Positions 12,902 through 55,168 of a stretch of 64,000 nucleotides of DNA are shown piece by piece. Position numbers and translations under genes: made by a program. Within the stretch, counting starts at the first letter, position 1. Every line of letters begins with the position of its first letter. Under the pieces are notes generated by a model. That model saw only the letters and a list, made by a program, of their open reading frames with translations. It was not told the DNA's origin and did not search any database. Origin of the DNA: Candidatus Proelusimicrobium volucris (GTDB lineage Bacteria > Elusimicrobiota > Elusimicrobia > Elusimicrobiales > Elusimicrobiaceae); assembly GCA_944324665.1 (NCBI GenBank), contig CALUXD010000002.1, positions 352,694 through 416,693 of the forward strand, in the 5' to 3' direction.

Positions 12902-12964
12902 ATAAATAGAAGAAGTATAAATTTAACGGTGAAATTTATATTGTTGTCGAAAACGGTGAAAATT

Positions 12965-15900
12965 ATGAATAAAAAAATTATGTCGGCAAGTATGAAATTT
13001 GTATCTTTAATTCTCAGTGCTGTTATGGTGTTTGAAAGCAGCGCTCCCGCCTATGCGCAAGCCAGAAGGCTGCCTTATGAAGGCGGGCGCCAGATAATGG
13101 TTTTTGACGGTAAGAAACTTCTGGAAGAGAAAATGAAGATGGATATGGTAATCCCCGCAGACAATACCAGAGTGGTTCGCCCCAAATATATCAGACCGCA
13201 AATACTGGATAACCCCATTTGGCAAAAAGCTGAAAGGATAAAGATGGAGTTGCTTTTGGGATCTAAAGGCTCCGCGAAGGAGAGCGAAGAAACTTCATAC
13301 GAACCGTTAAACTACAAGCAATTTTATGCCGAGTACGAAAAAGCGGTAAATTCGCAAGCCGACAAATATAAAAAGGATAATGAATCGTTAAAGAAGCAGG
13401 CGTTGCTTGAGATGAATATGCAGGCTGAAAAATATCTGCTGAGCGGCGAATATTCCGAGGCCGATATCGCCGCTTGGAAAACTCAAGAAACAGCCAATAT
13501 AGACAAATGGCTTAAAGAAGAGCAAGGCAAAATAGAGAAAATAAGGACGCAGGAACTTTCAAAAGCAAAAGCCAGCTTTGAAGAATATACAAATGAAGTA
13601 AATGCCGCGGCGGACCTCTATAATAAAGAGATATTTGAGGAAGTTCAAGGCAAAATAAACGAACTGTTCACCTTGTATAAGAATAATCCCAATTTGGAAA
13701 AGGAATTGAGATACACTTTATTTACCACAGTTCCTTTGTTTATCTCCATGAATTATAACGGCGAAAATTTGTTAAACGCCGAGCAGGAAAAAATCATTTT
13801 TGATTTTGCCTTGGATCAATTGGAAAAGCCTATAACGCTGCAAACGGATTCCGCCAACCCGTATATATCCGCGTTGACGGTTTTTGCCGCTTTGGGCCAA
13901 GTTGGCGACGGCGGATCCACGGCGGTAAAGAGAATGGTTTTCAGCAGTGTTGAGGCCCCGCAATTTCATTCTTATTTGCTTCTTACGGCCGTTTCGGCCC
14001 TTCTCGCGGTAAAGGATTATGGCGCGATAAGGGATATTTTAAGCTACTTTAATCAGCAAGAGTCCATATTTGAAACTATGGATTTACTCAGCGTTGCAAA
14101 TTGGGTGGATTACTTCCAAACGATAAACGGCAAATATTTAGGCAATATGTCTTCATTGGCTCAATACCAGTTGGAAGACGGCACTGTTGCCAACGCCTAT
14201 ACCGATATAGCTTTGATGTTGGCGGAAGAAGGCAGCCCTCAAGCACTGGAATTGCTTAAGAATTTCGGCGTTGATAAATGCGTTATGACGCTTGATTTTG
14301 CCTTTAATCTTAAAGACCATTTCTCCCCCCGCTGCGGCGGCATAAAACCTTTTGTGGCAGGAGCCTTAATGAGCGGCAAGGCTGGCGCGGAGAGATATAC
14401 CGGCCCGTTTGTTAAGAAAACTGTCGGGCAGCAGGAATTTACTTCCGACGGGCGTGTAAGAATGGTGACGTCCGATGAAGTAAATAGGGTTGCCTCTGCC
14501 ATAGATACAAATATGAGCAGATTTAAAGCTGGGCAGAAAGAAAGCGGAATGAGCGCCAATGCTTTTATGGCTTTGAATTTGATTAACGAAGCGCTGGGCG
14601 ATATAGGCGTCGCACAAGAATCTTTCATAGATACGGCAATGCTTAAGCAGTACAAGAGCGAGATAGCCAATACCATGCTTGGTAAAGGCGCGATAGTAGA
14701 TGACGCCCGCCGCGCAAGCAAAGAAAAAGGGCAAACTATTTACAAATATGCAAAAATTACGGGCAATATTTTGGATGTGGGCATATTGGTATGGTGTGCC
14801 TGGGACTTGGCTAAACTGGCCCGCGGTATTTACTCTTTAGGCCGCGGAGCTTATGCCGCTTTCAGATTGTCCAGAGTAGGAACTTCGGCGCAGAGAATGG
14901 CCTATATAACCAGCCATTTGCCGCATTTGCGCAAATATTCCTCTGCCGCCAAGTCTGTTGCCAAATTTACGGCCCGCGTCAAGAACGGCATGGAGCCCGT
15001 GGTCTTGGCTCAGAGGGCTTTGTATACTTCTGCGCCGCTGCCTAAGATTGCCGGTGTGGGCTATGAAGGCACCGCAGTCGCTAAAACTTTGGCTACGGCT
15101 TCTTTTGATGCGGCGAAAGGCGGATATGTTATAAACGCGGCTGAGGCTTACAAATCTTCTGCGGGCCAACCCGGAAGAGTGCTTGATATCGTCAATACGA
15201 GAAAAGCCTTAGACGCTGGTGCCGCTTCGGCCCAAGAGTCTTTTGCAAACAGGGGTTTCTTTGAAAAATACAGAGGATACAGAGGTTATCTCTCCGATGC
15301 TACGAAGGAGGCCTTTAATGCAGGTAAATTTGATCAATACTCTTTGTCTGCGGGAATAGATTTCTCTAACGGTATTGCCAGTGCCAGAAACGTAAAGTGG
15401 AGAGCGCCCGTAACTTCCAATAACGTAAATTATTTGGCCAGACCTTTAGGCACTTCGGCTATGCCGGGCACTTTGGAACTGCATCATAGAAGCGCAGTTG
15501 GAATGGACGCAGAGCCTTTGCCGGTAAACGTAACGATTGAAAAGAAAATCCCCACCATCAAATCCAATGAGGTAACCAATGTCCTTTTAACCGGGGAAGA
15601 CGATGTAATGCTTTCCATAACGAAACAGCAGAAGCTTCCTTTCTATTACAGATGGATGTCGAAAGCGGCCGAATCCAAATTGATGCCGCAGAGCTGGTCT
15701 AACGGGATAGAAAGATGGGTAAGCAATTGGCGCGCCGAAAAAGAGTTTAAACTTGTAGACCCGGACTTCTTTAAGATAGGGTTAGACAATGAAAGTTTTG
15801 CCAATTTAGCCAAGATGTCTTATGCCGGTTCTACACCTTTAAACCTCAAATTTATGGGTGAGCGCACTGGCTTTGCCGGCAAGGTCGGCGGTTGGTTTAC

Positions 15901-17872
15901 CAACTCTTTTGCCGGGAAGAAGAGTTTATTCCCCGGTACGGGAACGGTTTTCGTAAGGGAAGGCGAGTTGTTGAGGCCGACTTCAATCAAACTTTCCACG
16001 CAGAAGCCTTTCGACGGAATACAGCTTATAGTAAACGAGAATAATACCATTTCATTGCTTGGCAAGGGCGCCAGCGGCACGATGACGGGCTTGAATGTTC
16101 CGTTCTCCTTGTCTTTGCCCAAGGGAGAGCTGCCTAACTTCCTTAAATATGCTTCCAACGGCAATTTTAACAATCCGTTTAATCTCTCTCTTACTGGCGC
16201 GAAGAATAAACTCAATACATTGTTTGCGGTGCAATTTCTCTCCTTGAGTGCGGCGTCTACCAGCTTGGTGGGCCCGTTAAGACAAAACTATCCCGATATA
16301 TCTAACACCGAGGTTGCATTGATATCAATAGTCTTGCCTTATGCATCGAGTTTCTTGTCTCCGTTCTGGGCGCCTTTTGTAAAGAGATACGGTTCGGCGA
16401 ATATGGTTAAGGCGAGTTTGGGTTTAGCCGGTCTTTCACTTACGATACCGATGTTCTCCGGCTTCCACGGCTTTGGCGACGTAAATTATATGAACCCCAA
16501 TAAACCGTCCATCACGCCCTTGCTTATCAGCGGAACTTTGATAGGTTTATCTTCTTCGATAACCAGGGCCTCGTTTAACCCCTTGATGGACAAGATGGGC
16601 GGCGGTGCAGGGTTGCTTAAAGGTATGGCTTTTAAGAATTTAAGTTCCTTTGCGATGTTGGCGCCTTCCTTGGGCGCGGCGTTATGGGACGCGGCCGATC
16701 CCAGATATTATACTGATGCCGACGGCAATTTCCTCTATAACGACAAGGGCGAAAAGATATTGCATTCTCATACAGACTTCTCGCTGTACAATCCCTTGTT
16801 GCTGGGTATTACGGGCGGAGTATTCTTGGCGTTCCAATCGGCTAGAATGCCTTCGCAGATAGGGAAGGTAAAAGGATATACGATGTCGCAGTTCGCCAAA
16901 GGCTTAAACGGTACGAATATGTTTGCAAGAGGATTTAACAGCGTTTACAGACCTGTTGCCGGCACATTGGCGGAAACTTGGAATGCCACAAAAGTTTTGG
17001 GCAAAAAAGGTGTTTGGCCGATAGCTTTAGCTTCTACGGCGGCTTTGGGTGTGGAATCTTCGTTGCTTTACAACTACAGCCAAACCGAGTCTAACAGATA
17101 TACGGCTAACTATATTTCCAATGATGCCGTTAAACCGGTAATAGCCACTTTGGCCCTTACGATACCGCCTTTCTTGGTAAGGCTTGAATCCAAACCGATA
17201 CTTAAACTGTTTGGCGGAGCGAACAATCCCGAAACATATAAACGTTTGATAGGTGCTTCGTTGGGATCCGCGGCCGTTGGAACAGCCTTATTGGCTACGG
17301 AAGATAATCTTGCCACATTTATACCAGGTATGGCTTTGGTAGGTATGGGTTTTGCCAATACGACTAACGGACTTTTGAAGATAGGCGAATATAATCTTAA
17401 AGCCGCTAAAGCTACGTCAAGTATGCTGACGGGGTATAAAGTAGCTTATCCTGGCGTGCATATAGGTATGGCAATATTCCCTAAAATGTTCAGCGGTGCG
17501 GCTGACAGCCAACTCGAAAAAGATCCTACTATCGAGAAATACGAAGCTTTGCAGGATAATATCTGGATACCCGCTTTGACTTTGGGCGGCTCAGCTTTCT
17601 TCTATGGATTAGGATCGGGATTATTCAAGTTTAAGTCTTTACCAAAGCCTTCACTTAGAATACCCACCGGCTTGCCCGCTTTTGCAAGATTCGGAATCGG
17701 ATCTCCCTCGGTGATGATGCAAGATTGGAGAAATAACGGGTTATTGCTCAATAACGACTTTGGTCAAATGAACATAACAACCCCCTCCGCCGAGCTGGAA
17801 GATATATTGTCAACCGACGAGGCAGAAGCTGAAGAAGAAATTCAATCTTCCGATGCGGCCGCTGCCGAATAA
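12965..17872 (+). CDS. Giant envelope protein (1,635 aa): signal peptide, long N-terminal region and a C-terminal 12-helix MFS-like domain (family member 1)
   Basis: Uninterrupted 4.9-kb ORF. Signal-like N-terminus MNKKIMSASMKFVSLILSAVMVFESSAPAYAQ. The C-terminal ~520 aa contain 6+6 hydrophobic helices. Paralogue of 18153-22841. Confidence 0.8.
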   Translation: MNKKIMSASMKFVSLILSAVMVFESSAPAYAQARRLPYEGGRQIMVFDGKKLLEEKMKMDMVIPADNTRVVRPKYIRPQILDNPIWQKAERIKMELLLGSKGSAKESEETSYEPLNYKQFYAEYEKAVNSQADKYKKDNESLKKQALLEMNMQAEKYLLSGEYSEADIAAWKTQETANIDKWLKEEQGKIEKIRTQELSKAKASFEEYTNEVNAAADLYNKEIFEEVQGKINELFTLYKNNPNLEKELRYTLFTTVPLFISMNYNGENLLNAEQEKIIFDFALDQLEKPITLQTDSANPYISALTVFAALGQVGDGGSTAVKRMVFSSVEAPQFHSYLLLTAVSALLAVKDYGAIRDILSYFNQQESIFETMDLLSVANWVDYFQTINGKYLGNMSSLAQYQLEDGTVANAYTDIALMLAEEGSPQALELLKNFGVDKCVMTLDFAFNLKDHFSPRCGGIKPFVAGALMSGKAGAERYTGPFVKKTVGQQEFTSDGRVRMVTSDEVNRVASAIDTNMSRFKAGQKESGMSANAFMALNLINEALGDIGVAQESFIDTAMLKQYKSEIANTMLGKGAIVDDARRASKEKGQTIYKYAKITGNILDVGILVWCAWDLAKLARGIYSLGRGAYAAFRLSRVGTSAQRMAYITSHLPHLRKYSSAAKSVAKFTARVKNGMEPVVLAQRALYTSAPLPKIAGVGYEGTAVAKTLATASFDAAKGGYVINAAEAYKSSAGQPGRVLDIVNTRKALDAGAASAQESFANRGFFEKYRGYRGYLSDATKEAFNAGKFDQYSLSAGIDFSNGIASARNVKWRAPVTSNNVNYLARPLGTSAMPGTLELHHRSAVGMDAEPLPVNVTIEKKIPTIKSNEVTNVLLTGEDDVMLSITKQQKLPFYYRWMSKAAESKLMPQSWSNGIERWVSNWRAEKEFKLVDPDFFKIGLDNESFANLAKMSYAGSTPLNLKFMGERTGFAGKVGGWFTNSFAGKKSLFPGTGTVFVREGELLRPTSIKLSTQKPFDGIQLIVNENNTISLLGKGASGTMTGLNVPFSLSLPKGELPNFLKYASNGNFNNPFNLSLTGAKNKLNTLFAVQFLSLSAASTSLVGPLRQNYPDISNTEVALISIVLPYASSFLSPFWAPFVKRYGSANMVKASLGLAGLSLTIPMFSGFHGFGDVNYMNPNKPSITPLLISGTLIGLSSSITRASFNPLMDKMGGGAGLLKGMAFKNLSSFAMLAPSLGAALWDAADPRYYTDADGNFLYNDKGEKILHSHTDFSLYNPLLLGITGGVFLAFQSARMPSQIGKVKGYTMSQFAKGLNGTNMFARGFNSVYRPVAGTLAETWNATKVLGKKGVWPIALASTAALGVESSLLYNYSQTESNRYTANYISNDAVKPVIATLALTIPPFLVRLESKPILKLFGGANNPETYKRLIGASLGSAAVGTALLATEDNLATFIPGMALVGMGFANTTNGLLKIGEYNLKAAKATSSMLTGYKVAYPGVHIGMAIFPKMFSGAADSQLEKDPTIEKYEALQDNIWIPALTLGGSAFFYGLGSGLFKFKSLPKPSLRIPTGLPAFARFGIGSPSVMMQDWRNNGLLLNNDFGQMNITTPSAELEDILSTDEAEAEEEIQSSDAAAAE

Positions 17873-18102: not shown

Positions 18103-18152
18103 GATAATAAGGAGTATAAGGTTTTCTCTTCTTTTCAAAGGTGATAATTATT

Positions 18153-21100
18153 ATGAATAAACATATGTATAATATAGCAAGGAAATCAATATCATTGATA
18201 TTATCCGGTGTATTGCTTTTTGAGTGCAATGCTCCGGCATTGGCGTTAGACTATGGGAATATTTCTTATGATTCGCAAGCGCTTGAGCTTGAAGAAAAAA
18301 TAGATAATGCTTATATAAAAGAAAACACTTCCGTAGGGCAATATGATGCCGTAATCGCTAAGGAAGTAGCCAAGCAGAAAGAAATAATAAAGCCTTTGGC
18401 AGAAAAGATGGTTTCATATAGGGCGGCCGGCAATAAGAAGTATGGCGGCAACTTTTTTAGGGCTTCGGCTTATACAGGTGCGGTTTCTACGAATACCGTG
18501 GGAAAATTGGTCTATGAATTAAAGAGGTTCTTAGCCGGTTTTTATGCCCAACGCAGAATAATGCCTTTTAACGAATTTAAGAAACAATATTCCGAATTTA
18601 TCACTAATGAAGCTAAGCAGTATGCTAAAGAGAATAACTACACCTTTAACTCCAATAACTCTACCGTAAACGATATCGTCAAGGAAATAGAGAAACAGTA
18701 TCCTGCGCAGAAGATGTATAAGGAGTATGTAAGTATAGCGCAGAAAGAACTTAATTGGTACAAGGCCCACGAACAGAAACTAAACGAAGCCGCTTACCAA
18801 ATTTTGAGAGAATATGTAAAAGCCTTGGGCGTCAATATGAATTATGAAGCCGCCCGCTTGCTGTTAAACTTAAAGATTAACAATAAAGACGTGGTAACCT
18901 CTGCCGAAAAGCAGGAACTCTACAACTATATAACCTCTAGAATTAAAGAAGTAGATTTAAAATCTGCTTTTGACTTTGGCATTTTAAAATCCAATAAAAA
19001 AGGCAGAACGAAAGTCGCTGGCAAAATGCTTCAGGACATCATAGACCTTATGATGTTGGGCGTTTATGTAGTTCCGCAGAACGATTCCGCCTATTCGGAA
19101 GCGGTAGTATCTTTAATAGATAAAAGTATGGATACGGCGGCGTTTCCGCATATTCTTAATGCCGGTTTTTCCGCATTGCTGACATTAAAACGTTATGATA
19201 AATTAAATATTATTTTAGATAAATATACGAATATTGAAGCGAAGGGAACATCTTTTGTTGATGCGCTCTCTTTTCAATTTTTTGTAGATTCTTTTAACAA
19301 TATTCAAGGCAACTATTTGCGCGGCGCCGCTTCAAAGGGGGCGCAATACACCACGGAATATGGGTACAGAAACGCGTTTGAAGATATTGCCGTATTGTTG
19401 GCTGAGGAGGGCTCTAAAGACAGCTTGGCTCTTTTAAAGAAATACGGCGTCAATAATAATAGGCCGATAATGCCGTTCCTGGCGGGCGCGTTGCTGGCCG
19501 GTAAAGCCGGGGCCCAAGCCAGTGAATCTTCTAAGAAGATGGGTTTGGATCCCGATTCCTACTTGGCGTTGAAAATCGCCAACACTTCAATGGGAGATTT
19601 GACTTTGACGCAGGAAAGCGATTTGGATATGGCTTTACTGTTGAAGTATCCCGCTATCAAATCGCATTTGGGCAGCGGCGCGATAGTAAATCAAAACAGC
19701 AAAAATTCCAAAAAGACTTCCCGTAAGGTTTATGATTACGCCAGTAACGCGGCAATGGCCGGTGATGTGGCGTTTATGGTATGGGCTACCTTTGACTTGG
19801 TAAGGCTGGCCGGTAAAGCCGTATCTTTGGGCAAAGCGACATATATGGCCGGGAAGATAGCGAAAATAACCGATCCTGCGCTCAGGCTTAAAGCTACTTT
19901 GGGCAATATGTCAAAAATTAGGCCCTACGTATCTGCGCGTTTGGCATTGAGAGGTTTTTCTGGACGTGTTAAAGGCGCGATGGCTGGCGTTGTTCTTGCC
20001 CAGAGGAATTTATATACTTCCGAGGCTTTGCCTGCGGTAGTTGGCGGCGGCGCGGCGAATACGACCGTGGCCAAGGCTTTGGCTACTACTTCATTCGATA
20101 TGGGAAAAGGCGGTTTGGTAATAGACAAAGCGGCGGCTTATAAGGCCTCGGCCGGCGCTCCTAACAGAGTGTTGGACATAATGAATACCCAGAAGGCTTT
20201 AAACGTAGCAAATGCTAATGCGACGCAGAAATTCTTTGCCAAGAGCTTCTTTGAGAAATATAAAAAATATCCCAATATCCTTGCCAGAGAAACCAGAAAC
20301 GCTTTCCGTCAGAGCAATTTCAGAGGCCGCAATTTTGAAGCGGCGATGGATTTCGGTTATAACTTAAAGGGCTTGGTACCCGGTATCCAAACACCTGAGA
20401 GAGCTTCCGCCATGGCACATATAAATTGGCTTTCCAGACCTTTAGGCACTACTGCGAAAGGTACCGGTTCCTTGGAGCTTTTCTACAGAGCGTCTGAGGC
20501 GGACGACCCTATGCCTTTGCCCGTGAATATAACTTTGGGCGAGAAGAAAATCCCCAACATTAAAGCCGATAAAGTAAGCAATGTATTATTGACCGGTCAA
20601 GAAAATGCGGCTTTCAAATTGGCTTTTGAACATGAAAATGTACTCGTCAACCCGACATTCTTTAAAGTCGGATTGGATAACGAAAATTTCGCGAATTTGG
20701 CCAGATTGACTTTGGGCGGCACAAAAGAGCTTAAAATCAAACTTTTGGCGGAAAATACCAGCCTTGCCGCCAGAAGCAAGAACTGGTTTTTAGATCTGTT
20801 CCGCAATAAGGACAAAATAATGTCCGGTACAGGTTCGGTCTGGATAAAAGAAGGTTCTGCGTTGCGCTCTACGCCTATCAAGTTGTCTACGCACAAGGAT
20901 TTTAACGGCGTAAAGGTTCTAATAGATGAAAACAATAAGGTAAGCATACTTGGAAGGAGTGCTATGGGCGCGAAACCTACTCCTTTTACCTATCCTTATT
21001 CTTTCTCTATACCTAAGAGTGAGCTGCCCGTATTTACGCAGTATGCTAAACTGGGCAATTTCAATACTCCGCTCAATATAACGCTTAACGGCGCCAGAGA

Positions 21101-22841
21101 TAAGGTAAACACCTTATATGCCGTACAGTTCCTTTCGCTCAGTGCGGCGTCTACGGGTCTTATCGGGCCTTTAAGACAGAACTATCCGGAAATGAGCAAT
21201 ACTCAGGAATCCTTGATAACGGTAGCTTTGCCTTATCTTCCGAGTTTCCTTTCTCCGTTTTGGGCGCCTTTCGTAAAGAGATTCGGCTCCGCAAATATGA
21301 TGAAGGTCAGCTTGGGCCTTGCGGCCAGCTCTTTGGCACTTTCTACGGCGACAGGGTTTGGCGGCTGGAGCGACGCTAATATTTACAACTTGGACAAACC
21401 GTCCTTGACGCCTTTGCTGTTTAGCGCGGGTTTTATAGGATTGTCTTCCTCTTTAACGAGAGCCGCTTTTAACCCCTTGATGAAAGAAATGGGCGGCGGC
21501 GGCGGATTGCTCAGGGGTATGATGTATAAAAACTTGAGCTCTTTTGCTATGCTTTTGCCTCCGGCGGTTTTCACAGTTTGGGATGCGGTTGATCCCCGCT
21601 ATTATACCGATACCGGCAAGATAGACGGAAATCCGATTGTTTTCCAAGGCGATGATGTTTACGGGACGGACGGTTCTTTGGTAATTGCAAAAGGCCAACC
21701 GATAGTTGACAAAGACGGATTACCCTTAAAACACAGTCATGTTGACTTCTCAATATCCAATCCCGTACTTTTGGGTATAACCGGTGCTATCTTATATAAA
21801 TTCCATACGGCGCACATGTCCAGGCTGATAGGCGCTGTTCCGGGCTATACTCTTGGCCAATCTATAAAGCCTTTGGCCGGCAATTCCAAATTCATGTATT
21901 ATTTCAACAATAACTTATACAGGCCTACTTTTGGGGTGTTGAAAGAAAGCGTGAATTCCACAAAAGTAATGTTCAGGAAAGAAGTGTGGCCGATAACGGC
22001 AGCCGGATTTGGCGCTTTGGGCGTGGAAGCCTCGTTATTTAACAAATATAGTCAGAACGAGGCAAACAACTACCTTACGGATGTGCGTTTATTGGGAGTA
22101 AATGTGGGCGATCCGGTTCTGAGGCCTATAGCCGCAACTTTCTTGCTGGCGGTGCCGCAATTCTTAGTAAGATACAAATCCAAACCGCTGATTGCGAAAC
22201 TTGGCGGGGAGTCTAATCCTCTTACTTATAAGAAACTGATAGGGCTCTCATTGGGTTCGGCCGCGGCCGGTACGGCGCTGTTGGCGACGGAAGATAACTT
22301 CTGGACTTTCGCGGCGGGTATGTCCTTGCTGGGTATGGGTTTTGCCAATACGACTAACGGCTTCTTGATGATCGGCGAAAACAACCTTAAACGCGCAAAA
22401 GTGGCCGAAAGTATTCTTACGGATTGGAAAGTTGCCTATCCTGCGGTACACGTCGGTATGTCTTTAATACCGCTGGCGCATAACTACGTTTCCGATAATG
22501 AAGTGGCAAACAACCCAGAAGGCGTTACCAAACTGCAGGCTATGCAGAACAACATTTGGATACCGGCCGCGGTATTGGGCGGTACCACTTTGGGATTCCT
22601 CAAAGGTGCGGACTTGATAAAAGCGGGACGCGTAGCCAATATGTTTACGCCGGTCAAACATGGTGCGGCGATGGGTGTTCCGTACTTTATGTTAGACAGG
22701 TGGAATACCAATTTGTTCAAACCGAGTTTTACGCCTAATTTTGCTCAGCCTAGTTTTGACTTCAAACCTTTGGGCGTACCGGCTTATAATTTGAACAATA
22801 TAAACACATCTTCTTTAAATCTTGAAGAAAGCGAAAAATAA
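18153..22841 (+). CDS. Giant envelope protein (1,562 aa), family member 2
   Basis: Uninterrupted 4.7-kb ORF. AAGGTGA SD before the ATG at 18153. Collinear similarity to member 1, including LYAVQFLSLSAAST, FLSPFWAPFVKR.GSANM and GMGFANTTNG. Confidence 0.8.
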   Translation: MNKHMYNIARKSISLILSGVLLFECNAPALALDYGNISYDSQALELEEKIDNAYIKENTSVGQYDAVIAKEVAKQKEIIKPLAEKMVSYRAAGNKKYGGNFFRASAYTGAVSTNTVGKLVYELKRFLAGFYAQRRIMPFNEFKKQYSEFITNEAKQYAKENNYTFNSNNSTVNDIVKEIEKQYPAQKMYKEYVSIAQKELNWYKAHEQKLNEAAYQILREYVKALGVNMNYEAARLLLNLKINNKDVVTSAEKQELYNYITSRIKEVDLKSAFDFGILKSNKKGRTKVAGKMLQDIIDLMMLGVYVVPQNDSAYSEAVVSLIDKSMDTAAFPHILNAGFSALLTLKRYDKLNIILDKYTNIEAKGTSFVDALSFQFFVDSFNNIQGNYLRGAASKGAQYTTEYGYRNAFEDIAVLLAEEGSKDSLALLKKYGVNNNRPIMPFLAGALLAGKAGAQASESSKKMGLDPDSYLALKIANTSMGDLTLTQESDLDMALLLKYPAIKSHLGSGAIVNQNSKNSKKTSRKVYDYASNAAMAGDVAFMVWATFDLVRLAGKAVSLGKATYMAGKIAKITDPALRLKATLGNMSKIRPYVSARLALRGFSGRVKGAMAGVVLAQRNLYTSEALPAVVGGGAANTTVAKALATTSFDMGKGGLVIDKAAAYKASAGAPNRVLDIMNTQKALNVANANATQKFFAKSFFEKYKKYPNILARETRNAFRQSNFRGRNFEAAMDFGYNLKGLVPGIQTPERASAMAHINWLSRPLGTTAKGTGSLELFYRASEADDPMPLPVNITLGEKKIPNIKADKVSNVLLTGQENAAFKLAFEHENVLVNPTFFKVGLDNENFANLARLTLGGTKELKIKLLAENTSLAARSKNWFLDLFRNKDKIMSGTGSVWIKEGSALRSTPIKLSTHKDFNGVKVLIDENNKVSILGRSAMGAKPTPFTYPYSFSIPKSELPVFTQYAKLGNFNTPLNITLNGARDKVNTLYAVQFLSLSAASTGLIGPLRQNYPEMSNTQESLITVALPYLPSFLSPFWAPFVKRFGSANMMKVSLGLAASSLALSTATGFGGWSDANIYNLDKPSLTPLLFSAGFIGLSSSLTRAAFNPLMKEMGGGGGLLRGMMYKNLSSFAMLLPPAVFTVWDAVDPRYYTDTGKIDGNPIVFQGDDVYGTDGSLVIAKGQPIVDKDGLPLKHSHVDFSISNPVLLGITGAILYKFHTAHMSRLIGAVPGYTLGQSIKPLAGNSKFMYYFNNNLYRPTFGVLKESVNSTKVMFRKEVWPITAAGFGALGVEASLFNKYSQNEANNYLTDVRLLGVNVGDPVLRPIAATFLLAVPQFLVRYKSKPLIAKLGGESNPLTYKKLIGLSLGSAAAGTALLATEDNFWTFAAGMSLLGMGFANTTNGFLMIGENNLKRAKVAESILTDWKVAYPAVHVGMSLIPLAHNYVSDNEVANNPEGVTKLQAMQNNIWIPAAVLGGTTLGFLKGADLIKAGRVANMFTPVKHGAAMGVPYFMLDRWNTNLFKPSFTPNFAQPSFDFKPLGVPAYNLNNINTSSLNLEESEK

Positions 22842-39902: not shown

Positions 39903-39907
39903 TTAAA

Positions 39908-40729: not shown

Positions 40730-40730
40730 T

Positions 40731-42092: not shown

Positions 42093-43158
42093 AATTCTCT
42101 CTATATTCAGATATCTGTTTAAGCGTGAAGGCTTTGATGTCCGCGCCTTCGTAGAAATTTTTGTACCACAGCGCCGTTTCCTTAACGGCTTTGTCAAAGT
42201 CGTAAACGGGGCGCCAGTTAAGAAGTTTAAAAGCCTTCTCTATATCAAGGTGAAGGAGTTTCGCCTCGTGCAGTTTGGCGCAGGGCTCAACTCTGTAAGA
42301 GCCGCCCCCCCACGTCTTTAAAAACAGTTTTACCAAATCCTCAACGGTGCGGACGTCGCTTGGGTTTGGGCCGAAGTTCCAGCCCTGCGCCAGAGAAGGA
42401 TTATCCCACATCTTTTTGCCCAAGAGCATATAGCCAAAAAGCGGCTCCAGCACATGCTGCCACGGCCTTGTGGCAAGCGGGTTTCTCAGCACTATTTGCT
42501 CGCCTTTGCTTAAGGCGCGGGCGCAGTCAGGTACGATTCTATCCAAGGCGTAATCTCCGCCGCCTATTACATTACCGGCCCTGCAGCTTGCCAAGGCAGT
42601 ATTGTGGCTTTTGCCGTACTCTTTAATATTGAAAAACGAATTTCTGTAACAGGAGGTAAGCAGTTCCGCCATGCCTTTTGACGCGCTGTAAGGGTCATAG
42701 CCGCCCATGGGCGAAGTTTCTTTATAAGGAATATCCGTTTCCTTATTTTCGTAGCATTTGTCGCTTGTTATGTTTATCAGAACTTTTACGCTGGGCGTTT
42801 GGCGTACGGCCTCAAAAAGATTCGCCGTGCCGATAACATTGGTTTGTATCGTTTCCACCGGCTCTTTGTAGGAAAGCCTTACCAGAGGCTGCGCCGCCAA
42901 GTGGAATACTATATCTGGCTTAAAAGAAAGTACTTCTTTTTTAAGTTTATCGGCGTCCAAAATATTGCCTATTACGCTTTGCGTCGCTTTTTCAAGCCCG
43001 AGCAGTTCGTATAAAGAAGGATTGGTATTGGGCGCCAAAGCGTAGCCTTTAACTTCCGCGCCCATATCTGTAAGCACGGCGCTGAGCCAAGAGCCTTTAA
43101 AGCCAGTATGCCCCGTCAGAAATATCTTTTTGCCTTTATAAAATTGTTCCAATGTCAT
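42064..43158 (-). CDS. rfbG: CDP-glucose 4,6-dehydratase
   Basis: FLTGHTGFKGSWLS N-terminus, the Y-x-x-x-K pair YSASK, and ~360 aa. It sits between rfbF and rfbH. Confidence 0.9.
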   Translation of the reverse strand: MTLEQFYKGKKIFLTGHTGFKGSWLSAVLTDMGAEVKGYALAPNTNPSLYELLGLEKATQSVIGNILDADKLKKEVLSFKPDIVFHLAAQPLVRLSYKEPVETIQTNVIGTANLFEAVRQTPSVKVLINITSDKCYENKETDIPYKETSPMGGYDPYSASKGMAELLTSCYRNSFFNIKEYGKSHNTALASCRAGNVIGGGDYALDRIVPDCARALSKGEQIVLRNPLATRPWQHVLEPLFGYMLLGKKMWDNPSLAQGWNFGPNPSDVRTVEDLVKLFLKTWGGGSYRVEPCAKLHEAKLLHLDIEKAFKLLNWRPVYDFDKAVKETALWYKNFYEGADIKAFTLKQISEYRENYGKLNKEID

Positions 43159-43173
43159 ATAATTTTTCGGCCT

Positions 43174-43950
43174 TTACCATTTTTTCCAAGGGGCTTTGCC
43201 CTCCGCCCATAATTGCTCAAGCTGGTTTTTGTCGCGCAGAGCGTCCATCGGCTTCCAAAAGCCTTCGTGCTTATAGGCGGCTATTTGGCCGTCGGCGGAC
43301 AATTCCTCCATAGGCTCCTTTTCCCATACGCAGGCGTCGTCGCCTTCCTTTATGTATTTAAGAACTTCCGGCTCCAATACGAAAAAACCCGCATTTATCC
43401 AGCCGCCGTCGCCTTTTGGCTTTTCCTTAAAGGACTTGATTATGCCGTTCATATCTATATCCATCGCGCCAAAACGCCCCTCGGGCTGTACGGTAGTAAC
43501 GGTGGCCAGTTTGCCCGTCTTTTTGTGGAAGGCTATTAAATCTTTGATATTTACGTCGCTTACCCCGTCGCCGTAGGTTAAAAGGAAAGTTTCGTCCCCG
43601 ATATATTTTTCCGCCTGTTTTATGCGTCCGCCGGTCATAGTGTTTAGTCCGGTGTCCAAAATGGTAACTTTCCACGGCTCGGCTTTATGGTTCAGGGTTT
43701 GTATGGTATTTGCCGCCAAATCTATTTGCAAATCGGAATTGTGCAGAAAATAATCGGCGAAATATTCCTTTATTATATATCCTTTATAGCCCGCCAATAT
43801 TATAAATTCGTTTATACCGTAATGGGAGTATATCTTCATTATGTGCCACAGTATCGGCTTGCCGCCTATTTCTATCATCGGTTTAGGGCGAAGGTGGGAT
43901 TCTTCCGCTATACGCGTACCCATCCCGCCCGCCAATATAACAGCTTTCAT
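43174..43950 (-). CDS. rfbF: Glucose-1-phosphate cytidylyltransferase
   Basis: MKAVILAGGMGTRI...RPKPMIEIGGKPILWHIM. GGAGG lies 7 nt upstream of the ATG at 43950. Confidence 0.9.
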   Translation of the reverse strand: MKAVILAGGMGTRIAEESHLRPKPMIEIGGKPILWHIMKIYSHYGINEFIILAGYKGYIIKEYFADYFLHNSDLQIDLAANTIQTLNHKAEPWKVTILDTGLNTMTGGRIKQAEKYIGDETFLLTYGDGVSDVNIKDLIAFHKKTGKLATVTTVQPEGRFGAMDIDMNGIIKSFKEKPKGDGGWINAGFFVLEPEVLKYIKEGDDACVWEKEPMEELSADGQIAAYKHEGFWKPMDALRDKNQLEQLWAEGKAPWKKW

Positions 43951-44153
43951 AAAATATGCCTCCAAATGGTTTTATATATTATACATAATTAAGTTGTGGC
44001 GAAATATATAAGTAAAAAGGATTATCAGAAAGGTTATCTTATCTTTATTTGCGATATTCTTTCTATGACGGAACTATCCAAACAGTTTGCCTTGGCTTTC
44101 AATTTTAATGCTACAATACAAAATAAGTATATGTACAGATGAGGTTTTGTTTT

Positions 44154-46142: not shown

Positions 46143-49100
46143 TTATTTGTTTTCAGTGTCTGTTTTGGTAAAGAGTTCCTTTTTTTCTTCCGTTTTATTA
46201 TCGGTTTGGAGTTCTTCCCCTTCTTTTTCGCCGCTGGCGTATACCACTTCCGTAGAGAAGTCAAAAGAAGTCGTATTTTTTGGGGCGGTCTGCGCGGCAT
46301 TTGCCTTCTGTTTTTTGAATATGGACTGCGCTAAAGCCAAAGCACCGCCGCTCAAGGCAACCGGGACAAGCACCGCTACCTGCAAAGAGCCCGTCAAATC
46401 CGATACGAAGCTGAGCAGCGTTCCCGCGGCGGCCGCCGCTACCGAAAAGCTGAATATAAGCAAAGTGGTGTTTGCCGCTTTTTCGCCTCTGCCTTGCAGT
46501 GCCGCGTTAAATAAAGGCGGGAAGAGATTCGCATCGCCAATAAAGAATAAAGCCGCACCCGTAAGCCCCAAAGGCGATATTCCCTCCAAGGCGAAAAGGG
46601 TTAAACCCGATAAAACCAATCCGCCCGATATTTTGTAAGTGGAGGTCGAAGAGAGTATCCCCCTCTTCTGCAGTTCGCCGCATAAAGCCCTGGCAAGGCC
46701 CATGGCAGTATATATCAGTACGCCGCCCAATATATTAGGCATATCAGATAGAGCGCCGTAATGCTCCTGCGCCATGGAAAATACCAATAAAGAAGTTGTC
46801 AGCTCGCCCGCTTCTATCAAAGAGAAAGAGATGGCGGCTTTTCGGGCTTCGGCATCTTTAAAGAACATTTCAACAAGGCCTTTTAGCCCGCCGTCTTCTT
46901 TGGATTCGGGCAAGGGTACGTCTCTGAAGTTCCCCCTGAAGATGCTGGTAAGCGCGATAAGGCTTAACGGCGCGAGAAGTAAAGGAAACGTAATCGCGTT
47001 GTTTACTTCCCCAAAGCCCAAAGATTGCGACGCAAAGTTAAGCAAGGGCCCAAACTCAAGGAACAATATGGTTCCCAAACTTCTGGCCATAGCCGTTTGC
47101 GTGGTAAGGCCGAGCGCTCTTTGCGCGTCGAAATTGACGTCTATCAAAGGATATATCGTCGAGTATTTTATCTCGTTGGAAAGCGATACCAGCGATATGC
47201 CCGCCAGAGAACTTATCAGGCCGGCCGTACTGCCGTCATTGGTAAAGCCGTTAAGGCCGCCCAATACCGTCAGCCCGACGCCGAGGAAAGTGCCGACCGC
47301 GGCCGTCCTCGCCATATTTATTACGCCCCATCTGTTAAAGAAGTATCCCATAAACGGCACCAAACCCGCGGGCAGATAACTTATTAAGCTGATTATCGTG
47401 TTTGTAGTGGAAGTATCCAGCCCGTATACTTGGCTTATCATGGGTGCGGTGGCTGTTACCGTCGTCGCCGCGAGGAAGTTATACAAGAAAGCCGAAGGCT
47501 TTACTATATCGTCCTTCTTCTTTAAGAATGCCGCTATTTTGCCTAACAGGCTTTTGGGTTCTTCTTTAGCTTGAGTGGAATTTTCCGCCGCTTCATTGGC
47601 ACTGTTGCCGACCGATGCGGAAGAGTAAAAATCTCCCAATATTTCCGCTACGGCGGCGGGGCTTTCCCTTAAAAGATGAGGCCTGCCGGGTACTTCATAG
47701 ACCCAAGACGACGGATCTGTTCTGTTTTCTATAAAACCGTAATTGTAATCCTTTGTTATTCTTGCCGTAGGGGCTTGCGTTTGCCCGTATGAACCTGCCA
47801 AGAGTTTGCCATCGGCGTATCCGTATATGTCGCGCGCCAGCATTACGGGCAAAGCTACGCCCGCCGCGGCGTTTTGCAGCCCGGAGGCAAGTTTAGCCGT
47901 CCAATAAGCCGCACCCCGCCCTTGCAGTATATTTCCGCCTATTAATGGAATGCCGTTGTAGAAACTTAATATCTTGGGGTCTACTACGTCTACGGGCCTT
48001 ATATTCTTTATGCTTATGCCCGTTTTGGCCGCGATATCGTAAGCGCTAAGATTAAATACATTGGCCGCTTTAACGCCGCCGCGCGTAAAATTAGCCACCT
48101 GTTCCGTCGCCGCCAGAACTCTGCCTCCGTTTAACATTCCAGGCGTTACGGTGGCTACATTATAATTGAACAGTAAGGTCGTGCCCAGCACGGTGGCTTT
48201 GTTGTTTACTATTCGCAGGGTTTTGCTCGCTAAGCCAAGGTGGTGATTATCAAGCCATTTATATAGATTGTCAATACGGTTGAGCGGAGATATTTTTGGC
48301 GAGTCCGATAAAGTAGGCGCTTTATACTCTCCTTTTATGTTAAAGGCTTCGGCCAAAGTCGTTTCCGTTTTGCCCGAGTGGTTAAATATCAATCCGTTTC
48401 CGCTTTCGCTGTTCCACCAGCGGCCGAGTTTGCTGTTTTTTAGCCAATCTCCAAATCTGTTGGCGCGTGCTGTTTTTAAAGCCTCTGAGCTTTTGGCGTA
48501 CTTTGCCAAATTGGCCTCGTAGCTGCGGTAGCGGGCGATATAATCTGCCGATGCTTTGCTAAGCTGTACCGCTTTAGGGGCTTGAGGTTTTATCGAAAGT
48601 TCGGCTTTAAGCGTTTCAAGTTCTTTTAGAATCTGCTGCGCTTTTGCGTTCTCGCCGCTTGCGGCCAAAGCATTATACTGCGCCGCTTTGGTATTATAAA
48701 GATTTACTTTGGCGTTATAGGACTTAGTGGCGGCGATATATTTTTCATACATGCTTTTGTTTGTTTGATTTACGGTGTTTATCTCTGCCTCTATCGCGGC
48801 CTTTTCCTGAGCGGATATATTGCGCTGTGCTTTTGCTATATCGTGTTCGCTTTTGGCCAATTTATATTCGGCCGTTGCTTTATCGGCTTTGGCTTGGCGG
48901 TATGCGCTTACCTTTTTGCCGCCGCTGCGCCGCGCTCTTAGTTTGCTTATCGCGCTTTTGCGCCCGTCGTAGAGTTTCTTAATTCTAAGATTATCGGCTT
49001 TTATCGCGGCTATGTTTATACCCTCGCCGCGTATCTTTACCGCCTTTAACAAACGGCTTTTTCCAGCCAATTTTATTTTGCTTAAACGGTATGAAGTCTT

Positions 49101-50837
49101 TGCCAAATTTGCCCCGCCGCGGATAAGAGAAGGTATACTCTTGATAAGTGCGGGCGTCAAAACCACCATTAGGGCCATATCCGTCCAATAACCGGCGGAT
49201 TTTATTTTTTGGTTGTCATTGTATCTTGTGGCTTTCTTGTCGTTGAGGGCCTTTTTAGAGAGGCCTTCCCCCCCTTCCGTAAAAGCCAAATTGTTTACGC
49301 GCGTCTGCGTGGCGGCGTTAAGGTCCCACCAGTCGAGATTATTTAGCAGTTTCCTTGCGCTTAAGGACAAGGCGTCTTTTCTGGCTTTGTTCTTTAACAC
49401 TCCGCTTACCAAAGGCGTGTGTATTTTGTTGCCCGTATCTCTCTTTAGCAGCATTAAGAGGAAATTGCCTTGCGCGGCGGCAGTTTTGGCTAAAGCGTAG
49501 CTCCGTGCTTCCTCCCGCACATATTTATTTATGATTTTCCGCGAAAGTGCGGCGGCGTATTTGGATTTGTTTACGCTTATCGAATAACCTATATCTTCAA
49601 GGACATTGCCGTATATATTGCCGTATTTGTTTTGGCCTTTTTGTATAAGATATTGCGTTTTTTCCCCGTATCCGTTAAGATAATTGCCGCCGCCGCCTCT
49701 TATGTATCTGTTAAATACCCCTATGCCTTTTTCTGCGGCGTTTTCTATGCTGAGGAGCTCTAAAACAGCTTTCGCTTTACCCTTTATCCCTTTGTTTTTT
49801 AAAGTTTCACTTAAAAGCAGATGCTCTATTTTGGCCCAAGAGTCTTTATCGTTTATCAGCGATAAGGCTGTTACGCCCGATTCCAAAGCTATGGCGCCGT
49901 AGTCGCCGTCCCAGGCTTCTGAGACGGAATCATATATTATCCTCCCGTTGGCGGCGGGATTTTTGCCCAACAAGGCAAGCAGGACCATAGCCTCGCCGGA
50001 ATTTATGCAGTCGAGCTGTCTTTTTTGCTTACCCTTGGCGCTTTTTTCTTTTAGGCCGCGGCTCTTCCCGCTAAAAGAGTATTCTATGCCGGGCATATAA
50101 TCTACAAGGTAAATGTCATTATCGCAGTATTGCGGCGCTTTTTTGGCTATGGCGCTTATATAGTTTATAAAACGGGCATAATCTTTATCGTTCACTCCGC
50201 CTAATAAAGCCAGATCCCGTACTTTGGCAAATACACCGTTATTGCTTGCGGGCGTATCGCCTTTTTCCAAAATGCCTTTTTGTATTTCTGATTTATAGAA
50301 TTTATCGTTTAGAACGCCGTTTAGCAAACCTTGTATGAAGGCGGGGCACTCGTATGTGTTTTTATTGTATTGGGTTTGTTCTTTCCCGGAACAGGCTTTA
50401 AGGTAATACTTTTCGACGTCGTAACTGCCGTCTGGCGCTTTGCCACGCGCGTAGGCTGAACGCCCTGCTTGATAAGAAGCCGAGTTAAGACGTTGAAGCT
50501 CTTTGTACGCTTGGTAGGCAAATTCTATTTCCGCCGCAAGTTCTTCGGCCGTAAGCTCTATTCCTTTATATTCCTCTTTGATGAGCTTAGAGAGTGCCGC
50601 TATCGTGTCGGCGTCTTGCGCGCGATTGTATGCCCCGTTTAATATGTCGGATATGTCAAACTCGAACGAGTTCTCCTTTTGCCAAGCGGCAAAATCGTAT
50701 CCGGTTTTAACCGGGAGCAGCTGGGCATAACTTCCCGCCGTTAAGTTCAGCAGAATCGCCAAGCTGATAGCTATCGATATAGCTTTGTTTAAGCTCTTGC
50801 TTAAACGTTTTTGTAACCACGATACTCTGTTCTTCAT
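46143..50837 (-). CDS. Giant envelope protein (1,564 aa), divergent family member 3
   Basis: Uninterrupted 4.7-kb ORF with a signal-like N-terminus, a Lys/Ala-rich coiled-coil-like stretch and a C-terminal polytopic domain. It shares blocks with members 1 and 2 in both the N-terminal region and the membrane domain. Confidence 0.8.
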   Translation of the reverse strand: MKNRVSWLQKRLSKSLNKAISIAISLAILLNLTAGSYAQLLPVKTGYDFAAWQKENSFEFDISDILNGAYNRAQDADTIAALSKLIKEEYKGIELTAEELAAEIEFAYQAYKELQRLNSASYQAGRSAYARGKAPDGSYDVEKYYLKACSGKEQTQYNKNTYECPAFIQGLLNGVLNDKFYKSEIQKGILEKGDTPASNNGVFAKVRDLALLGGVNDKDYARFINYISAIAKKAPQYCDNDIYLVDYMPGIEYSFSGKSRGLKEKSAKGKQKRQLDCINSGEAMVLLALLGKNPAANGRIIYDSVSEAWDGDYGAIALESGVTALSLINDKDSWAKIEHLLLSETLKNKGIKGKAKAVLELLSIENAAEKGIGVFNRYIRGGGGNYLNGYGEKTQYLIQKGQNKYGNIYGNVLEDIGYSISVNKSKYAAALSRKIINKYVREEARSYALAKTAAAQGNFLLMLLKRDTGNKIHTPLVSGVLKNKARKDALSLSARKLLNNLDWWDLNAATQTRVNNLAFTEGGEGLSKKALNDKKATRYNDNQKIKSAGYWTDMALMVVLTPALIKSIPSLIRGGANLAKTSYRLSKIKLAGKSRLLKAVKIRGEGINIAAIKADNLRIKKLYDGRKSAISKLRARRSGGKKVSAYRQAKADKATAEYKLAKSEHDIAKAQRNISAQEKAAIEAEINTVNQTNKSMYEKYIAATKSYNAKVNLYNTKAAQYNALAASGENAKAQQILKELETLKAELSIKPQAPKAVQLSKASADYIARYRSYEANLAKYAKSSEALKTARANRFGDWLKNSKLGRWWNSESGNGLIFNHSGKTETTLAEAFNIKGEYKAPTLSDSPKISPLNRIDNLYKWLDNHHLGLASKTLRIVNNKATVLGTTLLFNYNVATVTPGMLNGGRVLAATEQVANFTRGGVKAANVFNLSAYDIAAKTGISIKNIRPVDVVDPKILSFYNGIPLIGGNILQGRGAAYWTAKLASGLQNAAAGVALPVMLARDIYGYADGKLLAGSYGQTQAPTARITKDYNYGFIENRTDPSSWVYEVPGRPHLLRESPAAVAEILGDFYSSASVGNSANEAAENSTQAKEEPKSLLGKIAAFLKKKDDIVKPSAFLYNFLAATTVTATAPMISQVYGLDTSTTNTIISLISYLPAGLVPFMGYFFNRWGVINMARTAAVGTFLGVGLTVLGGLNGFTNDGSTAGLISSLAGISLVSLSNEIKYSTIYPLIDVNFDAQRALGLTTQTAMARSLGTILFLEFGPLLNFASQSLGFGEVNNAITFPLLLAPLSLIALTSIFRGNFRDVPLPESKEDGGLKGLVEMFFKDAEARKAAISFSLIEAGELTTSLLVFSMAQEHYGALSDMPNILGGVLIYTAMGLARALCGELQKRGILSSTSTYKISGGLVLSGLTLFALEGISPLGLTGAALFFIGDANLFPPLFNAALQGRGEKAANTTLLIFSFSVAAAAAGTLLSFVSDLTGSLQVAVLVPVALSGGALALAQSIFKKQKANAAQTAPKNTTSFDFSTEVVYASGEKEGEELQTDNKTEEKKELFTKTDTENK

Positions 50838-53875: not shown

Positions 53876-55168
53876 TTATTTATGGGGCCAAATTACTCCG
53901 TTTACCGATCTGGGGTGATTGAGTCTCACCTTGCCGGATTCAGCGTCCATATTCTGTATCGCTTTTAAGGCTTTTAATAGTTCGGGCGTTCTTTTTATAA
54001 GTCTGCCCGTTCCAACGTCTACGATATTGCTGTTGTTTTGATAGTGTTTGCCGTTTTCATCAATAATCGGCCTGGTAAAGACATTTTCATCAAATTCCAC
54101 TTGTTGGGCATCGCTGAAAAGATTGATTATATCCAACAGTGCCATATCGTATTTAATCGGATCGGAGGAATATTGTAATTCCGTTCTTATAACTATCAAA
54201 CCGTGTAGACGAATGATGGATTCCTCTTTGGCTATATTATCCAACCAACGGGTGGAACGGGTAATATTGGGAAGCTGAGGTTTTTCACAAGATTGCGGCT
54301 GAGGAAGCTCCACGATATTTTCGTTCGCGATGGAGGCTTTGGCGGCACTCCCGGTTAAATCTTGAGCGTATTGGCTATTGGTTAAATAGTTGTATTTTAC
54401 CAAGCGCTGGGTGAGATCTTCGTAGAGATTATCCACTATTTCAGAACCTAAAAAAGTCATCATCTCAAGCATAATTACGGCGGCCAAACCTTTTGTTATG
54501 CTGGCGGAGGCTAGAGTCATTGAAGTAACCGCGGCGGAAGAGCCAAACCAAGTAGCCACCAATGCCCCTTCTGCGCCGAGCGTCGCCCCTGCCGTATATA
54601 CCGCCGCTACCGTAAGCAAGCCCAAAACTATTCCTTGCAGACAGGCAGAACCGTATTCTTTTACTTTCGCTTTCTTTAACTCTTTTTGGTAGCGAGGATT
54701 CTTCTTCAGCAGTTCAGATATTACTTTAGTTTCTCTGCTCATGGCGTTCATTACTTCATACGGGGTATAATTTGCAAACTCGCTGTCATGATAATCTTTG
54801 ATCGCCGCTTGATATTTATTCCATGCGGGTTTAATGTAATACACATCGTGAAAGCCCGAAAGATTACCGTTGGGATTAAGTTTTTTATATAAGGATATTG
54901 CCTCAAAATAGTTTAACCCTTGATAAGGATGAAGGAAATTTAAGGGACTAGGGCTTTTTGCTTTTTGAGGTGGCGCCATAAGGACATTTCCCGTATTGCC
55001 AAAAGACGGAGCGGTAAAGCCCGAATTAAACCCGCCAAAAGAATATACGCCCGTCTGATTGTAGGAAGGAACCTCCTTTTTACGAGGTATAGGCTGCGCG
55101 TTTAAGGGTATTGACCCTCCGATTAAAGTAAGACAAAGCATTATAGAAACCGTTTTTTTGTATATCAT
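53876..55168 (-). CDS. Exported hypothetical protein with a central small-residue-rich hydrophobic block
   Basis: GGAGG SD and a signal peptide. Internal segment ACLQGIVLGLLTVAAVYTAGATLGAEGALVATWFGSSAAVTSMTLASASI. Confidence 0.65.
   Translation of the reverse strand: MIYKKTVSIMLCLTLIGGSIPLNAQPIPRKKEVPSYNQTGVYSFGGFNSGFTAPSFGNTGNVLMAPPQKAKSPSPLNFLHPYQGLNYFEAISLYKKLNPNGNLSGFHDVYYIKPAWNKYQAAIKDYHDSEFANYTPYEVMNAMSRETKVISELLKKNPRYQKELKKAKVKEYGSACLQGIVLGLLTVAAVYTAGATLGAEGALVATWFGSSAAVTSMTLASASITKGLAAVIMLEMMTFLGSEIVDNLYEDLTQRLVKYNYLTNSQYAQDLTGSAAKASIANENIVELPQPQSCEKPQLPNITRSTRWLDNIAKEESIIRLHGLIVIRTELQYSSDPIKYDMALLDIINLFSDAQQVEFDENVFTRPIIDENGKHYQNNSNIVDVGTGRLIKRTPELLKALKAIQNMDAESGKVRLNHPRSVNGVIWPHK

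Follow-up and report, generated by a model that had tools for sequence, protein, structure and literature searches.

Three giant genes and the modules of G3

The 64,000-nucleotide stretch analysed here (the window; contig CALUXD010000002.1 of the Candidatus Proelusimicrobium volucris assembly GCA_944324665.1) contains three open reading frames (ORFs) of more than 1,500 codons, which are labelled G1, G2 and G3. G1 (12929..17872, plus strand; 1,647 residues from a GTG, with a likely ATG start at 12965) and G2 (18141..22841, plus strand; 1,566 residues from a GTG, with a likely ATG start at 18153) are arranged in tandem and, as judged by a sequence identity of 43% across approximately 1,300 residues, are plainly paralogues. 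G3, the subject of this report, is a complete gene (46143..50837, minus strand; 1,564 residues plus a stop codon, from the ORF list and translation) that lies on the opposite strand from the pair, 23 kb away. An earlier reading of the letters alone (the sequence-only reading) had proposed that G3 is a third, divergent member of the same family. The profile comparisons described below bear this out and make it near certain that G3 is a true, very divergent paralogue of G1 and G2. The same reading had assigned 14,292 nt, about 22% of the window, to the three genes. This figure is exact when the first ATG codons of G1 and G2 (12965 and 18153) are taken as starts; taking the GTG starts that the ORF tool lists instead gives 14,340 nt, still about 22%.

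The reading frame of G3 is uninterrupted over 1,564 codons, and full-length orthologues that are 98% and 86% identical are present in public assemblies. The gene order around G3 is kept in one related locus (L001), the orthologue of which is 85% identical. A codon comparison with this orthologue gave a ratio of nonsynonymous to synonymous substitution rates (dN/dS) of 0.09 overall, with values for the individual modules running from 0.05 in the membrane domain up to 0.12, and 0.26 in the C-terminal tail. Purifying selection acts on every module of G3, and the overall ratio rules out a pseudogene or a spurious ORF. A phage or defence element was also considered and rejected, as PADLOC gave no match; the NCBIfam and PADLOC scans yielded nothing meaningful.

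The protein begins with a Sec-type signal peptide (residues 1-38; 50724..50837, minus strand), identified by reading the sequence and from a hydropathy peak at residues 19-37. It comprises a basic n-region and a hydrophobic core followed by S-Y-A and then Q, and it is predicted to be cleaved. There is no lipobox Cys, and a lipoprotein was rejected for this reason. A variable N-terminal region (residues 39-265; 50043..50723, minus strand) leads into a conserved all-helical head (residues 266-553; 49179..50042, minus strand), which is homologous to residues 286-545 of G2 and is predicted to be periplasmic. The AlphaFold2 (AF2) model of residues 200-650 is all-helical (pLDDT of 78, pTM of 0.72). 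Both this model and a pair of cysteines, C238 and C277, reach upstream of residue 266; the two cysteines co-vary, being both present in 29-30 of 41 sequences or both replaced. A Foldseek comparison of the head with the PDB and BFVD gave no significant match (best E values of 0.35 and 0.12, respectively, with TM-scores of at most 0.21), and a search against PDB sequence profiles gave none either. Pfam found no match in the head and middle module of G3 and 18 relatives, and detected in G3 no recognised sensor domain (PAS, Cache or 4HB), no HAMP domain and no kinase or methyl-accepting chemotaxis protein (MCP) output.

Within the head lies the motif WWDLNAATQTR (residues 503-513; 49299..49331, minus strand), which was located from motif positions and column conservation. 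It is the G3 version of a signature, [WY]WDLNEGTQRR, that the G3-type clade carries approximately 45 residues before the hydrophobic helix and that is absent from the G1/G2 clade. Its columns are strongly conserved (W 85-87%, D 100%, N 90%, T 95% and Q 92%). G3 itself has Ala where 85% of the members have Glu and Thr where 80% have Arg, a departure that its close orthologues share; at residue 398, G3 and its close orthologues have QYLI where the clade consensus is QYID. The head is closed by a membrane helix (residues 554-572; 49122..49178, minus strand), assigned from a Kyte-Doolittle value of 1.85 and from the bias in flanking charge. This is the clearly hydrophobic mid-protein helix that had been picked out from the sequence. 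In nearly all clade members a hydrophobic segment follows the motif at approximately 45-50 residues, and the net charge of the flanks is +4.6 after the helix versus +1.7 before it, being higher after the helix in 34 of 39 members.

The helix is followed by a basic juxtamembrane stretch and a Lys/Ala-rich segment (together residues 573-800; 48438..49121, minus strand), delineated by composition and heptad score and predicted to be cytoplasmic. Residues 573-602 include nine Lys or Arg residues and no Asp or Glu, and residues 640-800 consist of 14% Lys, 21% Ala and only 3% Gly plus Pro. The segment appears helix-prone. The sequence-only reading had described it as coiled-coil-like; a crude home-made heptad score is sustained at a high level along residues 626-785 but does not rise above that of shuffled sequences, so that a coiled coil is no more than plausible. 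The remainder of the middle part is a domain without a fold assignment (residues 801-1095; 47553..48437, minus strand), delimited from the phmmer domain map. It gave no match to the PDB by sequence, and its dN/dS against the L001 orthologue is 0.12.

The C-terminal part of G3 consists of a 12-helix domain (residues 1096-1515; 46293..47552, minus strand), defined by AF2, Foldseek and hhalign and homologous to residues 976-1405 of G2, and a charged tail (residues 1516-1564; 46146..46292, minus strand), which is the least conserved module (57% identity to the orthologue at the dN/dS of 0.26 given above). The AF2 model of residues 1095-1520 (pLDDT of 80, pTM of 0.79) shows 6+6 helices, in agreement with the 12-helix C-terminus proposed earlier. 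Compared with the PDB using Foldseek, the model aligns over its full length with FLVCR1/2, MdfA, FucP and SPNS2 (E value of 2e-8, TM-scores of 0.72-0.78). There were 390 PDB matches at an E value of 0.001 or lower, and the best 50 listed are all major facilitator superfamily (MFS) transporters. As modelled, the C-terminal domain of G3 has the MFS transporter fold. The description of these proteins as a family of unknown function is accordingly not wholly right. A search of the MFS profile against the PDB by sequence gave no match, and only the fold comparison worked; Pfam MFS_1 matches 12 of 12 aligned relatives, with a best E value of 2.3e-12. The domain is the most constrained module of the protein (dN/dS of 0.05), and two charged residues, E1345 in TM7 and R1383 in TM8, do not vary across the G3-type alignment; G2 has a Glu and an Arg at the matching positions. 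In comparison with G3, G1 and G2 have an extra loop of approximately 70 residues after the fifth MFS helix (WDAVDPRYYTD...HSHVDFS). The helices of their MFS domains are unusually weakly hydrophobic (Kyte-Doolittle values mostly of 1.1-1.5). Directly downstream of the G1-G2 pair there is also an ordinary stand-alone MFS_1 transporter gene (23740-25188, plus strand; 482 residues, E value of 1.8e-64).

Homology between G3 and the tandem pair

Pairwise BLASTP with G3 returned one significant segment, residues 1122-1233 in the membrane domain (E values of 3e-5 against G1 and 1e-3 against G2). A shallow profile, built from G3 and two close orthologues, reached a probability of 58% against the G1/G2 family and aligned the start of the MFS domain alone. 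When a hidden Markov model (HMM) of 17 G1/G2-type proteins was run on G3, it gave weak, collinear matches. The score over residues 236-605 was 14.0 bits, whereas none of 600 shuffles, global and local, exceeded 4.5 bits.

An exhaustive phmmer search with residues 1-1110 of G3 as the query was made against 1.84 billion cluster representatives and returned 49 proteins, the common core of which corresponds to residues 200-650 of G3. Profiles were then compared using hhalign, with a 41-sequence G3-type core on one side and a 20-sequence G1/G2-type N-terminus on the other. The head and following helix of G3 (residues 266-578) align with residues 286-570 of G2 at a probability of 97.8% and an E value of 1.1e-12, which changes to 1.6e-10 when the hydrophobic helix is left out. 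The controls were clean: 20 column-shuffled targets gave E values of 0.16-0.97 and a reversed target gave 0.08. For the C-terminal domain, a 12-sequence G3-type profile aligns with residues 976-1405 of G2 at a probability of 98.7% and an E value of 2.1e-16; the G3-type MFS profile matches G1 at an E value of 3.5e-15 and G2 at 5.5e-12. The sequence-only reading would have fallen had the similarity been at chance level outside the membrane domain; instead, a domain of approximately 310 residues is homologous outside the 12 helices.

The short blocks that had been quoted as shared are real and in register, each standing opposite its proposed partner in the profile-profile alignment. The G3 stretch GEAMVLLALLG...GRIIYDSVSEAWDGDYGAIALESGVTALSLIN aligns with IIDLMMLGVYVV...SEAVVSLIDKSMDTAAFPHILNAGFSALLTLKR of G2, which in turn corresponds to STAVKRMVF...SYLLLTAVSALLAVKDY of G1. 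Likewise, PLVSGVLKNKARKD of G3 aligns with PFLAGALLAGKAGA of G2, and the G3 helix YWTDMALMVVLTPALIKSIP aligns with MAGDVAFMVWATFDLVRLAG of G2.

One cluster representative, P0025, stands between the two types. It is 43% identical to G3 over residues 324-1564 of G3 and 32% identical to G2 over residues 7-600 of G2, so that over its residues 347-595 it shows significant similarity to the two proteins alike. On these alignments P0025 is a natural intermediate that links G3 and G2. Its cluster includes a protein of Candidatus Proelusimicrobium excrementi.

The kinship of G3 with G1 and G2 follows from the homology of both the head and the MFS domain, their occurrence in the same order, the clean controls and the P0025 intermediate. 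The proteins also resemble each other in having a signal peptide and the same overall size; the shared parts are the head with its helix and the MFS domain (approximately residues 1101-1439 of G3 versus residues 976-1405 of G2). The proposal that G3 shares the overall plan of the pair holds for these parts but does not extend to the regions around them. No similarity to G1 or G2 was detected for residues 39-265 of G3 with hhalign (a 10-sequence profile compared with the G2-type profile), in which only the signal peptides align; with the signal peptide removed the probability is 0.3%. Nor was any similarity to the G1/G2 family found with hhalign for approximately residues 640-1095, the middle-module profile aligning only at residues 592-641, weakly, with residues 566-616 of G2 (52% probability). 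At the level of these alignments, G3 and the pair share only two of about five modules. The missing homology of the middle module is a module difference within a superfamily and is no argument against the common descent of the other two modules. A further difference lies in the mid-protein helix, which is clearly membrane-spanning in G3 (Kyte-Doolittle value of 1.85 versus 1.33-1.35 in G1 and G2).

Module exchange, distribution and neighbouring genes

The middle part of G3 recurs in other members of the family. In the phmmer domain map it is common to P0017, P0018, P0019, P0025, P0042, P0043, P0050 and P0051, and several of the proteins that contain it carry a G2-type N-terminus. Because G3-type middle modules occur together with G2-type N-termini, the family reads as a mosaic. 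The Lys/Ala-rich segment reported earlier is therefore real in composition, but the domain map marks it as part of an alternative, exchanged middle module and not as an insert into a common frame. One of the proteins concerned, P0017 (2,029 residues), combines a G2-like head, a G3-like middle and an MFS domain. Its gene (loci L030-L033) is directly followed downstream by an SSF symporter gene and galK-galE-galT, a neighbourhood that may hint at a link with sugar uptake or may be a coincidence.

The C-terminal modules are also exchanged. An MFS-type C-terminus is present in 31 of approximately 68 collected cluster representatives. In others the head and helix are fused instead to a Zeta_toxin/AAA_33 P-loop kinase (P0043, P0050 and P0051), to a receiver domain (Response_reg; P0033 only), to long TPR arrays (P0045 and P0047) or to Trypsin_2 (P0020 and P0040). 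Many representatives have nothing recognisable there, and some of the short family members may be fragments.

The distribution of the family was assessed by a pattern scan with one genome per species. This gave 28 loci. Records labelled Elusimicrobiota account for 25 of them and unclassified 'uncultured bacterium' records for the other three, with 88% identity in the closest record. The Elusimicrobiota loci come from Elusimicrobiaceae and Elusimicrobiales metagenome-assembled genomes (MAGs) from gut, rumen and termite sources, and one related MAG holds four head-bearing loci. The proteins form a superfamily of modular, putative inner-membrane proteins, and this analysis detected it only in Elusimicrobiota, the three unclassified records apart. 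A word-indexed protein search returned only two close orthologues with G3 as the query and one protein with the head alignment, and with so few proteins it is uninformative for distribution. In a divergent subclade, a polytopic membrane protein of approximately 265 residues abuts the giant gene in five loci, upstream in four (L020 4595-5389, L021 4652-5446, L026 4758-5522 and L029 4554-5378) and downstream in one (L025 9246-10061); G3 has no such neighbour.

A sequence that is 98% identical to G3 and likewise 1,564 residues in length (P0001) belongs to a 90% cluster that includes the RefSeq entry WP_428066263.1, annotated 'MFS transporter', from Candidatus Proelusimicrobium volucris. This entry probably represents the G3 gene itself, from the same strain or from a sister strain. 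Its name covers the C-terminal quarter only, and the entry records nothing on the head, on the middle module or on kinship within the family. What is already known is therefore this label and the ordinary fold of the last quarter. No published account of G1-G3-type proteins was found in the literature searched, and the 1,095 residues added in front of the MFS domain, the head domain, the kinship of the three genes and the shuffling of modules appear to be undescribed in the libraries and literature covered.

G3 is flanked on one side by an OprB-type porin gene and a gene with a tRNA-editing domain and on the other side by a BBP2_2 barrel gene; the gene after G3 is the one that encodes the aminoacyl-tRNA editing domain (tRNA_edit). 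Two adjacent genes nearby (53876-55168 and 55181-56581, both on the minus strand) encode proteins of 430 and 466 residues with signal peptides, no Pfam match and, in each, a mid-protein hydrophobic stretch. The pair is also found beside the G3 orthologue in L001. A sugar-nucleotide modification cluster (38145-43965, minus strand), including a nucleotidyl transferase, a 4,6-dehydratase-type epimerase and a DegT-type aminotransferase, is a neighbour of the OprB porin gene. From its listed TTG start (42197), the aminotransferase ORF shares 134 nt with the upstream gene, and the L001 orthologue has 453 residues compared with 488 here; translation therefore probably begins further downstream. Scans of the 64-kb window detected no tRNA gene, nor any Rfam family at the gathering score.

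Topology, proposed role and comparison with known systems

The homology and architecture set out above are near certain, and the mechanism is put forward conditionally. The shared plan would comprise, in order, a signal peptide, a variable region, an all-helical periplasmic head of approximately 300 residues, one membrane helix, an exchangeable cytoplasmic middle module and a 12-helix MFS-fold permease domain. From the sequences, we infer a topology in which the head is outside and the middle module and both termini of the MFS domain are inside. The signal peptide, the co-variation of C238 and C277 (as expected for a periplasmic disulfide) and the positive-inside charge bias all point to a periplasmic head. 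The region after the helix is predicted to be cytoplasmic because relatives carry a P-loop kinase or a receiver domain there, both of which work in the cytoplasm. A cytoplasmic middle module would deliver the N-terminus of the MFS domain inside the cell, in its normal orientation.

The head and helix are constant whereas the modules that follow are exchangeable, which is a receptor-like design and suggests a sensor-like head with exchangeable outputs. The MFS domain, in turn, looks like a functional permease, being under the tightest constraint of all modules and retaining invariant intramembrane charges (E1345 and R1383), and it may be a working secondary transporter. The periplasmic head would then set its activity or placement by way of the helix that joins them and the cytoplasmic linker, making G3 a ligand- or envelope-responsive, 'transceptor-like' permease. 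Overall, we consider it reasonably probable that G3 is a paralogue of G1 and G2 in which an MFS permease is governed by a periplasmic head, the transport and sensing parts of this statement being the conditional ones. A wider proposal can be made only tentatively: the head and helix may be an Elusimicrobia-specific sensor module wired to MFS, P-loop kinase, receiver, TPR or protease outputs, with G1-G3 as single-chain ligand-gated transporters or 'transceptors'.

Several observations weigh against a permease governed by its head. Foldseek comparison with the PDB and BFVD gave no recognisable ligand-binding fold for the head. G3 has also lost near-invariant head residues (E508 to Ala, R512 to Thr and D398 to Ile), and its head may be degenerate or may have changed or lost whatever the altered residues do. 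On the side of the transporter, G3 alone scores 14.6-16.3 bits on Pfam MFS_1 compared with a cut-off of 33.4. MFS motif A is degenerate as well. The canonical motif, G-x-L-a-D-r-x-G-r-k, occupies the loop between helices 2 and 3; in G3 the sequence is GYFFNRWGVIN, in which Asp has become Asn and a remnant G-x3-N-R-x-G is left after the second helix. The family consensus is G-x3-K-K-Y-G. Both Gly residues of the motif and its basic residue persist, and the Asp is replaced. The equivalent of the membrane helix is weakly hydrophobic in G1 and G2 (1.33-1.35), which makes the topology less secure for these two proteins. Finally, no conserved neighbouring gene was found across 30 loci beyond the synteny among close relatives, and the neighbourhood thus offers no pointer to a pathway.

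Some of these points would fit an envelope scaffold, in which the MFS-like domain is a non-transporting anchor and the head, bound to the cell wall or outer membrane, is tied to a cytoplasmic helical or coiled-coil scaffold. The degenerate motif A and the subthreshold Pfam MFS_1 score are in keeping with this, as are the long Lys/Ala-rich helical segment in G3, the weakly hydrophobic membrane-domain helices of G1 and G2 and the fact that approximately half of the head-bearing proteins have no MFS domain, which leaves the head and helix as the constant unit. However, no part of the protein is under stronger constraint than the MFS domain, the model of this domain is a complete 6+6 MFS fold with TM-scores of 0.72-0.78, and the invariant intramembrane charges would be needless in a mere anchor. 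We therefore regard a scaffold as an unlikely alternative to a head-governed permease.

Considerably less probable is a polymorphic effector family, in which the head would serve to traffic or deliver C-terminal payloads directed against competitors or the host and the 12-helix domain would enter a target membrane. The exchangeable C-terminal modules, which include Zeta_toxin/AAA_33 and Trypsin_2, the several paralogues per genome and the lineage-specific, gut-associated distribution are all reminiscent of such a family. Neither a 12-helix MFS domain nor a receiver domain is a secreted payload, however, and all modules are under purifying selection between orthologues. Downstream, no small immunity-like gene is conserved; G3 is followed by the tRNA_edit gene, and no known secretion or trafficking domain was found with Pfam, NCBIfam and PADLOC. 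Least probable are independent fusions, in which similar membrane domains were acquired separately and the N-terminal resemblance is due to chance; the weak BLASTP similarity of approximately 110 residues, all in the membrane domain, the 58% of the shallow profile and the unrelated middle modules and residues 39-265 would suit this, but it is contradicted by two modules that are homologous in the same order with clean controls (E values of 1e-12 and 2e-16) and by the P0025 intermediate, which matches G3 and G2 over the same residues, and all relatives come from one bacterial order.

On the wider, tentative proposal of a sensor module with interchangeable outputs, G1-G3 would represent a signalling architecture that is not known from bacteria. 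A head that senses would provide a compact model for the passage of a periplasmic signal to a transporter and a first handle on the envelope biology of the gut Elusimicrobia, which have barely been cultivated. If the head does not sense, a new domain family has still been cleanly defined, together with the shuffling of modules between giant paralogues, in a lineage-specific module toolkit that takes up one fifth of the window.

MFS transporters, which rank with the best-studied membrane proteins, are almost always stand-alone proteins of 12 or 14 helices, with the N-terminus usually inside the cell. The C-terminal domain of G3 is predicted to have the same two six-helix bundles as MFS transporters (Pfam PF07690; best structural matches, human FLVCR1/FLVCR2, 8ubz/9qu4; Escherichia coli MdfA, 4zow, and FucP, 3o7p; and human SPNS2) and, like them, has basic residues before the first helix, as expected for an inside N-terminus. 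Its identity to solved MFS proteins is only 13-17%, and the Asp of motif A is absent. Unlike in known MFS proteins, approximately 1,095 residues precede the domain; these comprise a signal peptide and, as predicted, a domain in the periplasm, an additional membrane helix and approximately 520 residues in the cytoplasm. The MFS domain is here the last quarter of a protein of 1,500-2,000 residues, the first third of which is a head without a match in Pfam, the PDB or BFVD. Some MFS proteins serve as sensors or bear additional domains, for example E. coli UhpC and mycobacterial Rv1410/MHAS2168, the structure of the latter (8pnl) being at rank 18 in the Foldseek list for the G3 MFS domain. No sequence relationship of G3 to UhpC or Rv1410/MHAS2168 was found beyond the MFS fold, and neither has a fused 500-residue periplasmic head, an extra membrane helix or a large cytoplasmic module. 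What these proteins have in common with G3 is the idea of an MFS fold coupled to sensing or to an extramembrane element.

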